Assembly (NCBI GenBank): GCA_964016885.1
Contig: OZ024742.1
Coordinates: 116,188,001-116,252,000 of the forward strand
Length of the DNA stretch: 64,000 nucleotides
Source of the DNA: Eledone cirrhosa
Lineage: Eukaryota
Direction: 5' to 3'
Shown: piece after piece, positions 9,926-59,358 of the stretch
Layout: each line of letters opens with the position of its first letter
Numbering within the stretch: position 1 is the stretch's first letter
Translations under genes and position numbers: made by a program
Notes under the pieces: generated by a model
The model's database searches: none
What the model was told of the DNA's origin: nothing
What the model saw: the letters and a program-made list of their open reading frames with translations, nothing else

Positions 9926-10488
9926 TAGAATAACAGGAGGCTGGACTGGTGTAATTCCTTGAAAGGTTTATTATACTATGATTATTTCAATGACCGGGTT
10001 CAGTATGAATCCGGTGACATCATCAGGTATTCAGAATAAAACAAAAGAATATAATAGACAAAATCCATGGGGCTGAAAATCAGAGACATGAGAGCGACCG
10101 AACATTTAGAAGCTTCGACCCCAAGACTTAGGGGCGGCCGACCGAGGTAGAAACTGCTAAATGTTCGGTCGCTCTCATGTCTCTGATTTTCAGCCCCATG
10201 GATTTTGTCTATTATATTCTTTTGTTATATTCTGAATACCTGATGATGTCACCGGACTCATGCTGAACCCGGTCATTGAAATGGTCATAGTATAATAAAC
10301 CTTTCAAGGAATTACGCCAGTCCAGCCTCCTGTTATTCTATAATAATTAACTCCGTACTCGCACCACCAACTACACAAACGAAGACGGGTGAGTTGCATT
10401 ACGTTGAGTGCTCTCCATAATATTACATCGGGGTTGACCATACGGAATGACCAGTTCTATCCAGTGATGAACCAACAAACCTAAATGA
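9926..10488 (+). mobile_element. Foldback element A: ~184-bp inverted arms + ~148-bp tail, in (TA)n
   Basis: 9926-10109 is the reverse complement of 10157-10340 (6 mismatches); hammerhead-like core in arms; TA tracts on both sides. Confidence 0.85.
10236..10293 (+). ncRNA. Minimal type-I hammerhead-like motif (mirror copy on - strand at ~9973-10030)
   Basis: ATAC/GTAT stem I; CTGATGA 10240-46; stem II ACCGG..CCGGT with imperfect base; GAAA 10278-81; AT/AT stem III; AUA site. Confidence 0.6.
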
Positions 10489-12769
10489 ATATATATATAT
10501 ATATATATATATATATATATATATATATATATATATATATATATATATATATATATATATATATATAGCATCCTTCTTTTACAACAGCATGTACTATTAC
10601 ATTACAATACTAACAGCTAAAAAGCTAGCCAGAAAAATGGTCTACTCTCATGTGTGTAATAGAAAAATTGTATACACGCACAAGCCCCCCTCCCCCACAC
10701 TCACACAAAGTGTATCCTTCACCCCTCTTTCTACCCCTCTCCCCTCTCTCTCTCTCTCTCTCTCGATGAATGTACAGCAGGAAAGAAAAATGTAGTTAAG
10801 GAATGTTGTGATTATTGGAATAATTATGGTGTCCTGTAAAAAGACTATTTTCAAACGTCAAAGAGAGATATTTATGTAAAACACGACAAAACCAGATTGA
10901 TGTTTAATGGCGATATGGAACAGATTGGAATACATGATACACTCTGAAAATTGCTTTAATCTAATCTCTGTTAGAACGTGAAAATAAGGTGCAACAGTGG
11001 CATTACGCAGAAACTTCGCTGAACGTTTCGTTAATTATAATGCCAACTCTTTCAGTCTGCCATATCGTGTTGGGGTGTAGGAGAGTACTAAAGATATGAG
11101 CAGAAAGTTTTAACAAATCCCAAGTAATTAATTAAATAAATTATAGTTAAACTCTATATAGGTAAGCGAAATAACACATATAATATAGGGAGCGGAGAAT
11201 GTGTTTACAGATAGAGATAGAACGTAATAAGATTTATATCGAATATCAGTCTCGCCTCGACACTCTGCAAAAAGAACTTTCATTCGTGTGAACAGCGATT
11301 GGGGTAATCCATCCTTGTTTTTAGGTAGTTATTATTTTTATATTAAGACATTTGTGAAAGTATCTTCTAACTCTTTACATAATATAAATGACAAGTTTTC
11401 TCTCCATTAATGTAGTGTGTGGATTTTTTCCAGTGTCCTGCTCTAAGTTCAAATCATGCCGTTGTCAAATTTCACTATTATTCTCTCGAAGTCGATACAA
11501 ATAAATACCAGTCGAATAAAGGACATTGGTAGAATAGTTAGATTATCAGATAGCATGAATCAATATATTTATTTCGTGTCTTTGCATGCTAAGTAAATAT
11601 TACACTGTGGCCCATTTAGGTGTTACATTTAATGTTAACTGGTTTAGCAATATCACCTCGTCATTGGACGCTGTCACTGGGCATTTGTCTGAAGTGCCAT
11701 TTAGTAGGACTGAACCCAAAAACCACGTGTTGCAAAGCTAACACATTACCCACTCCCCAATGCTTGTTTATTTGTACATATCTTCTTTTTTTTTATTATA
11801 ATTAAAAACTGTCTAAAATTTGGTTTAAAATAATACCATGGATTCTTTCGACCGTTTTCGATTTAACTATGTATACTTTAAAATTATGAATTTCTGTGTT
11901 ACCAATCTAGTAACTTAATTTTCAGGTGAATAACTCCTACAAGAAATGAATGATTAAATAGAAAGATAACATCTACGTGACTAAACACTTCAGTCATTCC
12001 CTCTCTTTGTCTGTTGAAGGCATGTGCGATATTTTATGACTTGATTATCAATATTTATTTATGGTGGGGTCAAATTTATCTTGGAAAATGCCACTCGATA
12101 AACGTGGTAAAAAATACTGTGAATCCCTGGTATCGTGCATAGCAGAATAGTAGGGGCATTGAAAAACACACAAAAAACGAAAACACAATTGACTAACCTA
12201 TATATATATGTATATATAATATATATATATATATATATATATATATATATATATATATATATATATATATATGTGTGTGTGTGTGCGCGCGTGTGTGTGT
12301 GTGTGTGTGTGTGTGTGTGTGTGTGTGTGTATACAAAGCAAAGAAGGCTAAGGTAGTCATACGAGTACATTTTATACAAATACGTGTTTCTGTCGCAGCA
12401 TACAGATAGTGGAGGGTGTGGTGGAAGTTGTAGCAGTAGTGTATCTCGATGTCAATGAATTTATGCCTACTGAAAATATGTCGGTAGTGTGGCATGCTGC
12501 GTCGAACATTATCATTAGGTAAACCGTTCATCATTTTACAAAATAAACGTCTTTCGGGTTTAAATAACAACAAGTGCTTATTTCACAAACAAATATACAG
12601 TTTCTTGCTTGTACGCATATATGTGTACTGTGAGTACATACCATCATATATACAACTACTGTTTAAATATATAAAAAACAACATTCACCTAGAATACTTT
12701 AGATGATTCCATATTTTAAGGATGGCCATCAGCCAAAATAGAAAAGCCTACGTTTAGTATTGTCATGTC

Positions 12770-56600: not shown

Positions 56601-59358
56601 TACATCTGTGAAAGATTATATATATATTATGTATATATATATATATATACATAATCTTTCACCGGTGTATATTTGCGAAGAATTTAAACCTATGCTTTCC
56701 GAACTTAGATATTTCTTCGATATCTAATAAAAAAAACTAGTCCTTGTCCATGTCACCGTTAGAAATACCGTGAACCAGTCATTAATCCGTTGTAAATCAG
56801 TATTCAACGAGGCAATTGTTCACTTAAGTTGATATAAATGTTGAATATTTCACCCATCCAGGCAATAATTGTGCTGATTCTGGATTTGTACACATATATT
56901 CTTTTCAAGTATAATTAAAAACAGCTATCTGTTAAGAATTACATTTAAAGTAGGCCTATTTTGTATATTATAGGAAGATGCCCTCTTTTTGCTATTTCGG
57001 TCTTAATTTATGCTTAATACATATTAATTATTGGTATCTATTCATCAATTTTTGTTCATAAGTAAATGATTCAACGCATTTTATTACTATTGTAGTTTGA
57101 CTAAAAAAGCCAAAAATAGTATTAATAAATTCTCCTTTGATAGTTACTGCAATGTGGTAAATATATGAACGCAAGCTACAGAATATAAGTTAAAAGCGTG
57201 AATGGTATATTTAGTGTAGTATGTTGCCACGGATAAAAAAGGACGAATGAGTCTGGTAAACCCTGATGTATTCAACTGACTATGAAATAGGATGAAATCC
57301 TAGATAGAGTTAGAACTTTCCATTTATTCCCCCCTGGGAACTTGAATAGTGAGAATTTCGAATTTTCAACAATTAAGTATGAAAACCGAGAGTCTGATTG
57401 GCTTAAATTTCACAGCTTGCCGTATGATGTTCACCACTCTAAATTTGAAAGTATTAAAGTTATTATTCATTAGAAAAGTAATAAGACTTTTAGTTCTCGG
57501 GGCATTCAATCTAATTCCAGTCGCGAAATTCGTCAAAGATTCGTAACAAGATTATGGACACTCAGTCACTGAGATGAGGTGAAGGTGAATTATTTTACCA
57601 GGGGTGTCACAACCAGCTGGCTCTGCTGGAGGCCTCTTTAACGTAGTGGTGAAAATTTAATGGAAATAGATTCTACACGGTTTTAATACAAGAATGCTTT
57701 GAGTAATATATAAGTTTCTACAACATACATACACCTATACATATATATATATGTATATTGATAAATAAACATAGTTATATATGTGTATGTGGGGGGGGGG
57801 GGGTATGAGGGTGTTTGTACACACATATGTATATATATGTGTGTATTTACACACACGAAAGGCTGGGTGATTTTAATGTATGTGTATATTTATTTCTGTA
57901 TATACACTATAGCACAGAGCCCGGGCTGAATTTCCGTGCGCAACCCTGTATATATGTATGTGTCCAATCTCTTCATACCAATCTGTGGTTTCTAGAATGT
58001 TCAACTCTAGTGAGACTTTTGCATGTAGGAAGCGAGAGACTAATGTCCGACGTTGTCTATTACCTTTTCAATGGTCTTCCCCATATCTTTCCTCCAGAAA
58101 ATTTCCTGCACTCTACATATGATGGCGAACGGTAGTAATGAATCTCATGTTCAAATGATGTATGGTGACGGTGGCAAATTCTCCCGAATGAAACAGTTCT
58201 AATTCTGTAGAAGCCATACCTATATTAAATATTTATACTCTGCTATGTATCGAGTACCTTACTTACTTTGGTTACCCCCGATTGATCCCGGGATAAATTT
58301 AATATATATATATATGTGTGTGTGAGTGTATCAATTTGGGAGAGTCGATTAAAACAATGCCTGTGCTTTATTTTATCAACTCTGTTAGGATGAAAGACAG
58401 CTAAACTTGAAGGGATTTGGATTCAGAATGTATATAAAGGGATATAACTAAATGCAATAAAGTATTTTGTCCGACTTTCTACCGACACTGCCAATCCATC
58501 GCCCTTATCTATTTAATAATAAGATGTGTTGATATATTAGAGTCATGCTCGTGTTAGATGAAATGATGATTGAATGTCTCCTTTGCTATAGAAGTAGTGG
58601 GTGAGGAACTGTGTCGTTGGCAAGGCAAGCATGCAAGTGAAACAATGATATATATATACATTAAACTATCTAAATTAACACAGTATGTGCAAATAGATGC
58701 GGATAAATATGGATTTTTTAATTTTCGTATAGAGAGAAATACATCTATGAGCAACGCACAACAGACATTTAAAACATTAGGGAGAAAAATGTTCCTTATA
58801 AAATATCCTGAGAATCAATAGGAACATTATATCAAGAACTGAGCAATCAGATGGTTATATTCGTGAAGAATGAAAAACAATAGAATGTGGCATCGGATGT
58901 CAACTTTTTCAGTGATTAATACGAACCGCAAACGGGTGGTAGATCGCAAATAAAACTAACATATGTGCCATAAGTGGTGACCACTATACATGAGGTACAT
59001 ATATATGTATATACGTGTGTTTGCTTGATTAAAATGAAGAATATTGAGAGGGGGGGAGCGAGACAGAGGGCGATATATATATATATGTGTGTGTGTGTAT
59101 AATTACTCATATAGAGATATATATAGCTAGAGAGATAGATAGATTTCTTTATTTACCATAAAGGCATAAAAAGAAGGGACAAATACAAAGGGGGAGTTTA
59201 CATATAATCGAGTAAAAAGGGTGTAACATGAAAATAATCGAAAATAACCTCAAAAGGGAGGGGACGTGATGGGGGTTGCACACACCCCCGAAAAAGTGTG
59301 CAATCCTTTGCCCGGGGAGCACATGGAGAAGGTGCTCCCCTCTCCTTTACTTCTTTAC

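Follow-up and report, generated by a model that had tools for sequence, protein, structure and literature searches.

A bulged hairpin carried twice ahead of the reading frame of Hydra-clade Penelope-like elements, a probable start signal for reverse transcription

The control over where a retroelement begins copying its RNA could be based on a signal within that RNA. Such a signal is proposed here for elements in a 64,000-nt stretch of the genome of the octopus Eledone cirrhosa (contig OZ024742.1, positions 116,188,001 to 116,252,000; hereafter the window). The motif GAGNNCTC, which recurs in the tails of small foldback elements, forms the 3' side of a bulged hairpin; two copies of this hairpin lie between the hammerhead ribozyme and the start codon of Hydra-clade Penelope-like elements (PLEs). 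Each copy is probably an RNA site that holds the reverse transcriptase (RT), with copying starting a few bases 5' of it. A sequence-only reading had seen half of this signal, a CTC...GAG motif shared by the tails of apparently unrelated foldback families; the fixed 2-nt bulge and the second copy beyond the tail end are added here.

The window is dense in (TA)n, and its small foldback elements consist of (TA)n, an inverted arm, an arm, a tail and a microsatellite. Minimal type I hammerheads, which are predicted ribozymes found as descriptor hits upstream of the tails, sit in the arms. This layout of hammerhead, arm and tail is that of PLE 3' ends as presented in passages of PMC8557442. Judged by their sequence, the foldback-plus-tail elements are the 3' ends of Hydra-clade PLEs in (TA)n. 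The tails do not otherwise align, as had been noted, but the families bearing them are not unrelated, being Hydra-clade PLEs, several with an open reading frame (ORF) of their own. Nor does the foldback setting extend to every site, since at 41614, 58252 and 40256 a single arm stands alone, with no inverted arm beside it.

The clade assignment follows motifs and architecture. In at least seven families, including families C and H of the window, the ORFs before motif-bearing ends have the marks of Hydra, namely the RW and DKT motifs, a CxCX5C linker and no CCHH. A very young family of this type (L208, L210, L212, L214) has a 3.9-kb tandem unit and many intact frames of 821 codons (for example L210:6671-9133), with 149 of 150 scored matches identical across 140 residues. 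Its frame, open in many copies, contains a YRDD RT core and a C-terminal Y..G..T..F..R...H region (motifs read by eye), and no Pfam family matched the protein. RLRWT/RLRWR, of the RWK type, and HSDKT, with DKT replacing DKG as in Hydra, occur in this family and in family C, and the linker is CNCRIKNKC, with CNLC and CLH around a conserved E and N, a pattern found again in L100, L022 and L031. The insertion into (TA)n and the canonical hammerhead near the 3' end are both present, as are the tandem copies, the 5'-truncated inverted copy and the one-sided tail of the insertion unit of endonuclease-bearing (EN+) PLEs. The window families D, E, F and G were assigned by hammerhead, target and hairpin alone. 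A Naiad origin was rejected: the endonuclease (EN) region is C-terminal and the hammerheads are canonical, whereas Naiad has an N-terminal endonuclease and no canonical hammerhead. Family B, for which the sequence-only reading had found no clear copy of the motif, is indeed without it, and its ORF end (L005) has a CX2-5CxxC linker and a CCHH endonuclease of Neptune type (by eye). In L032 a hairpin does follow the tail of family B, but it is part of an insertion of a different family, and B remains motif-negative.

Foldbacks were called without regard to the motif in the window and in 100 unselected stretches (1.062 Mb in total). This gave 125 candidates, of which 82 have tails of 30-260 nt that form 40 tail clusters; the 43 candidates with shorter or longer tails were left out of the motif count. 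Across the whole window GAGNNCTC is not clearly enriched (9 occurrences versus 5.1 ± 2.7 in 30 dinucleotide shuffles, maximum 11). In the tails it occurs 20 times in 7,449 nt, which is 2.7/kb versus 0.17/kb across the blind sample, and it is found in 6 of the 40 cluster representatives versus 0.26 in shuffles. The bipartite form, in which RCTC within the first 22 nt past the arm/tail boundary is followed by a matching GAGY, occurs in 12 of 40 clusters versus 0.53 after shuffling (maximum 4 in 300 shuffles). On the antisense strand it occurs in 1 of 40, and in the clusters with tails below 60 nt in none of nine. Two of the short-tail, hairpin-less clusters (L045:8212-8510, minus strand; L018:8828-9202, plus strand) share a tail word, ATGCTTCAAG..AACT..AA, which may serve a different PLE clade as its start signal.

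The hairpin consists of RCTC, a stem of at least 3 pairs, a loop of variable length, the return of the stem, a 2-nt bulge (mostly UU, otherwise UA or UC) and GAGY, usually followed by RCT. All ten octamers of the sequence-only reading are present where it placed them, and its CTC...GAG pairing is correct and extends into this hairpin. The palindrome GAGNNCTC did not hold up as the conserved unit, the last base being variable (CACTC 16, CACTT 12 and CACTG 6 of 40). At 39265 the octamer GAGAGCTC exists, but it contains the 5' strand (GCTC), and the homologous 3' strand is the GAGC listed in the table.

Covariation was examined in 26 instances chosen solely by a "first CTC, first GAG" core. The outer pair is Watson-Crick in 20 of 26 versus 10.5 after permutation (12 G-C and 8 A-U), and the inner three positions pair in 53 of 78 cases versus 22.9 (maximum 39 in 20,000 permutations); in these instances, no covariation was seen with a bulge of 0, 1 or 3 bases. 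Since the 2-nt-bulge register had first been spotted by eye on the same data, it was tested on independent sequence, namely 78 metagenome loci of Hydra type, which encode protein relatives and form 55 clusters at 80%; 16 clusters are without 140 nt of upstream sequence, which leaves 39 usable. (Relatives were absent from a first metagenome scan with a single protein query and from a scan of viral contigs.) The core was found in 27 of the 39, and at least two cores in 16 (shuffles 2.6 and 0.1). The inner positions pair in 39, 26 and 26 of 40 hairpins versus 27, 12 and 10, again only with the 2-nt bulge. The covariation that had been set as a check on the earlier claim is thus present both here and in the metagenome elements.

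Variants of the core keep the pairing (by eye): GTTC/GAAC in one family here, and GCCC/GGGC in Hydra-1_Crog in File S7 of PMC8557442. A variant ending in GAGGTGCACTT is common to the family at L030:4750-5120 and to this copepod element in the same file. In the passages of File S7, the hairpin can be seen by eye at the ends of four of six new Hydra consensus sequences, twice in two of them. A comparison of six motif 9-mers with the PMC8557442 supplement gave 8 matches, half of them at Hydra ends and half in rows for Naiad or Chlamys, a count from which line breaks may hide some. In a weak control of 30 GIY-YIG matches from other clades, none of the 25 microsatellite-bearing ends had the hairpin, many of these being possibly tail-less or interrupted ends.

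The second copy of the hairpin lies beyond the tail. Every family has two fixed end points, one producing copies without a tail and one producing copies with a tail (93 and 83 ends, with 25 other); a copy stops a few bases 5' of either hairpin 1 or hairpin 2. In tandem copies, the tail is continuous with the leader of the ORF that follows, and the second hairpin opens a few bases past the tailed end, as found in six families (A, C, H, F, T22 and the 821-codon family). For family C, the read-through pattern has 483 matches genome-wide; among the first 100 listed, one read-through sequence accounts for nearly all, and all 8 loci that were retrieved run on into GAGCACT. Ends joined to (TA) lie -1 to +13 nt from the first base of the hairpin in 37 of 37 cases in the 821-codon family, 97 of 102 in C and 46 of 52 in H (a scoring that excluded hairpin 1 of families A and F), and 10 of 14 metagenome ends lie within 0-6 nt. 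Matches of 2-4 nt of AU to the (TA)n target blur the exact end base. Since the ends adjoin the two hairpins, tail length equals hairpin spacing, and the window sites are all hairpin 1. This bears on the position of the motif, which had been given relative to the tail end: from there it is loose (39-80 nt in the window), but it is tight at the arm/tail boundary, which the 5' strand follows at a distance of about 2-9 nt in 22 of 26 instances. Among 18 intact hammerhead-to-ORF junctions from metagenomes, 14 have at least two hairpins, 55-74 nt apart. One metagenome element (L284, upstream of 1580) has three, with a spacing of 66-68 nt, and would predict three end points.

In inverted pairs, the two end points are used one of each: 44 pairs combine site 1 with site 2 and 4 are symmetric (14 unclassed; p = 3e-5 after the removal of 17 seed copies). 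A mechanism can be proposed in which the element's protein would cut both (TA)n strands. With a tandem or circular RNA as template, one cut strand would be primed at site 1 (ahead of hairpin 1) and its counterpart at site 2 (ahead of hairpin 2). The two cDNAs, of different lengths, would be joined head to head into a foldback, and the stretch from site 1 to site 2, which is the tail with hairpin 1, would thus be left on one side only. A small number of copies consist of the tail only, their start lying nearly at site 1 (L005:1490-1500, L032:4330), and about 9 of some 100 tailed copies start inside the tail or at its edge; in such copies the complex at site 1 may occasionally have halted the site-2 cDNA.

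Family A is a particular case. It is a non-coding tandem monomer of 1,779 bp with a hammerhead and without a tblastn match below E 0.17 (27 proteins), and is likely, from these sequence features, a long retrozyme-like passenger moved by PLE proteins. Because it retains both hairpins, it would be copied in trans. The family (window 9926-10488; L002, L216) gave about 2,250 first-look candidates of up to 99% identity.

Several observations nevertheless weigh against a hairpin that sets the RT start. The strict form is missing in 25 of the 40 tail clusters, some of which are other clades or false foldbacks and some variants or decayed copies. Two of the 18 metagenome junctions have no hairpin and two have one. 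In families D and E, four genome-wide pattern searches found no second hairpin, genuine read-through being found in 0 of 19 D and 0 of 12 E tailed copies. The permutation tests treat the families as unrelated. Folding is better than in shuffles in some cases (z below -2 in 4 of 10 hairpins), but 5 of 10 fold no better than shuffles and one more has a z of -0.7; the hairpin is weak without protein. The stems have 11 G-U versus 5 A-C pairs, too few to favour RNA over single-stranded DNA. The RT-start role itself would be carried over to Hydra by analogy with another clade, Poseidon. Finally, the tail is needed for plasmid recognition by the D. virilis Penelope endonuclease, as cited in PMC11167929.

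This last result would suit another, unlikely, explanation, which is that the hairpins act in DNA: the GIY-YIG endonuclease would bind the DNA or cDNA of the element and cut at a fixed distance upstream, and the ends would be resolution cut sites. GIY-YIG nucleases do cut at a distance from their binding site, and the G-U and A-C counts are compatible with DNA. The tail is, moreover, attributed to EN-mediated resolution in PMC8557442 passages. However, both types of end are joined directly to the (TA)n target, and no tailed insertion contains hairpin 2, which rules out its acting within the inserted cDNA. The fixed one-sided bulge and free stem sequence also suit a folded single strand rather than duplex recognition, and in PAc, a Poseidon element, genomic ends coincide with RT start sites on the RNA (PMC11167929, in its passages on these ends).

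Somewhat less probable still is that the hairpins are expression signals of the 5' leader (for the translation of uncapped or circular RNA, for packaging into ribonucleoprotein, or as promoter boxes), with the ends lying nearby for some other cause such as the AU matches to (TA)n. Hairpin 2 does lie 19-70 nt ahead of the ORF match, and AU-rich stretches precede both hairpins. But the non-coding family A keeps both, the ends cluster only at the two hairpins despite AU-rich sequence everywhere, and the use of one end of each kind in inverted pairs is left unexplained. A snap-back mechanism, in which a single cDNA, primed at the end of the tail, doubles back to serve as its own template and is halted by hairpin 1, would account for the many short foldbacks with near-perfect arms and small loops, yet it is very improbable and largely refuted. 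Site-1 arms often extend further 5' than their site-2 partners (L104, L010); since either arm of an inverted pair may be the longer (in L104 the site-1 arm is 3.1 kb and the site-2 arm 148 nt), self-copying of one cDNA is excluded. Long direct copies also end at site 1, and a stop signal leaves hairpin 2 unexplained. A second self-cleaving ribozyme or chance similarity, for which there is nothing beyond the suggestion of a second structured RNA in the sequence-only reading, deserves hardly any credence: no Rfam family reached the gathering score (the best 150 of 294 rows were all below it, as in a second scan, all matches being weak or driven by microsatellites), the conserved core is short (about 13 nt), and chance is excluded by enrichment and covariation.

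The proposal of the sequence-only reading that the motif is a cis-element for RT recognition therefore appears to be the best reading of a hairpin that is conserved and covarying in tails that otherwise do not align. A broader reading, tentative and given slightly less than even credence, is that the twin hairpin is a portable landing signal of 20-35 nt of RNA, letting a telomerase-related RT start inside an RNA without ends (tandem or circular). The two copies would then program priming on both strands of a single cut, enough in itself to give the inverted-plus-tail insertion, and other clades would have twin signals of their own. If this is true, any RNA given the hairpin pair would insert into (TA)n.

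The features of the window on which this analysis draws are collected below.

Table. Positions in the window of foldbacks, hammerheads, tails and hairpins
Feature	Position	Strand	Remark
Family A foldback: inverted tail-less arm 9926-10120, direct arm 10146-10340	9926..10340	.	In 1,779-bp non-coding tandem unit
Minimal type I hammerhead, family A arm	10236..10293	+	CUGAUGA 10240, GAAA 10278, predicted cleavage after 10289; read from sequence
Family A tail, end point 1 to end point 2, then (TA)n	10341..10488	+	
Family A hairpin 1	10350..10413	+	ACTC / CGTA..TACG / UU bulge / GAGT, then GCTC
Family C foldback	16162..16264	.	Hydra family with ORF elsewhere in the genome
Family C hairpin 1	16274..16301	+	
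Family G hairpin 1, decayed, long loop	18025..18112	+	Tail of foldback 17747-18018; compared by eye with 21503-21587
Family G hairpin 1, better kept	21503..21587	-	Missing from the earlier list
Family H hairpin 1, decayed	25401..25441	+	After short foldback ~25347-25394; intact family copies at L129, L207
Family F hairpin 1	39269..39295	+	GCTC 39269-72 pairs with GAGC 39288-91; foldback 39005-39260; folding z -3.8
Family C hairpin 1, single arm	40256..40283	-	
Family B foldback, tail on - strand	40553..41199	.	Motif-negative comparison; ORF end elsewhere with Neptune-type endonuclease
Family D hairpin 1	41599..41621	+	
Family D hairpin 1, decayed	47172..47194	+	After foldback 47044-47160
Family C hairpin 1, decayed (GAGT changed)	49361..49388	+	After foldback 49239-49352; missing from the earlier list
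Family E foldback, hammerhead core per arm (50598 +, 50484 -)	50401..50681	.	
Family E hairpin 1	50686..50710	+	Folding z -2.8
Family D hairpin 1, single arm	58237..58259	+	

Further HGAGYRCT words lie near microsatellites at 31209 (plus strand) and 37919 (minus strand), possibly in decayed tails of other families. The window also holds copies of a long interspersed element (LINE)-type endonuclease-RT element (59362-62829 on the minus strand, 27596-29638 and 4287-5654), one with a frame of 1,156 codons. A repeat of about 190 bp resembling a short interspersed element (SINE) lies at 1081-1552, 3894-4087, 20017-20197, 29840-30205 and 39354-39917, being in tandem at 39354-39917 and head-to-head at 1166-1549, and a 604-bp direct duplication (22217-22819 and 23388-23991; 97.7%) flanks a microsatellite.

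Questions long open for PLEs are how an internal start site is chosen and how a one-sided tail arises together with an inverted arm; in vitro work in 2024 placed the starts but named no signal. A hairpin with a 13-nt core, conserved from an octopus to other marine Hydra elements and lying beside the two ends, lends itself to a mutational test, for which the young family with many intact 821-codon copies is well suited. It also gives a rule for annotating both Hydra ends and non-autonomous passengers, and a way to approach how the retroelements most closely related to telomerase recognise RNA.

Functional parallels may exist in other systems. The epsilon element of hepadnaviruses is a stem-bulge-stem that is bound by the RT to set the start, although there the priming is by protein; in telomerase, template-flanking elements of the RNA place a TERT-related RT beside the template; and in the twin priming of L1, two primers from one cut give an inversion, with no fixed second site. 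The likeness of all three to the Hydra hairpins would be functional, and no sequence relation is claimed. Non-LTR retrozymes, reportedly described by Cervera and de la Pena, are comparable to family A. Like it, they are non-coding tandem units bearing hammerheads, but of up to several hundred bp compared with its 1,779-bp monomer (bioRxiv 10.64898/2026.07.22.740005), and the passages of that preprint contain no cis-signal for mobilisation nor the words tail, hairpin or initiation.

The nearest relatives are the C-terminal EN+ PLEs of the Hydra clade described by Craig et al. (2021, PMC8557442), which, in the passages concerned, share with the present elements what appears to be a single ORF, the RW and DKT motifs, the CxCX5C linker, the absence of CCHH, the canonical hammerhead, the (TA)n targets, the tandem and inverted copies and the optional tail. 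Their tails are 30-40 bp versus 55-170 nt here, and their units are below 3 kb, a descriptive and not a defining trait, versus 3.5-3.9 kb (tandem units of about 3.5 kb and 3.9 kb). Neither the Hydra section nor the supplement passages of that paper describe the tail motif.

For the Poseidon element PAc of Anolis carolinensis, Frangieh et al. (2024, PMC11167929) are the source of the comparison on RT starts. In the relevant passages, the protein cuts and extends both target strands in vitro, two internal start sites on the RNA bound the tail, and RNA is required to +172, about 55 nt past the main start at 111-118. That start is within the ORF, in an "AC-rich stem loop", and has no homology to the target, whereas the Hydra sites precede the ORF and have AU matches to the target. 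PAc differs in clade and sequence, and those passages mention neither a repeated hairpin nor a conserved motif. By eye, the template RNA in their Methods has a hairpin of stem, 3' bulge and stem at about +121, past the 111-118 start and within the +172 minimal RNA; this is a possible analogue in shape. Full-text literature searches, with subscription papers and Repbase notes outside their scope, returned no description of a conserved or duplicated hairpin in PLE tails. What is already known, then, is the elements themselves and the two-start origin of the tail; what is new is the hairpin signal, a cis-element in a known class.

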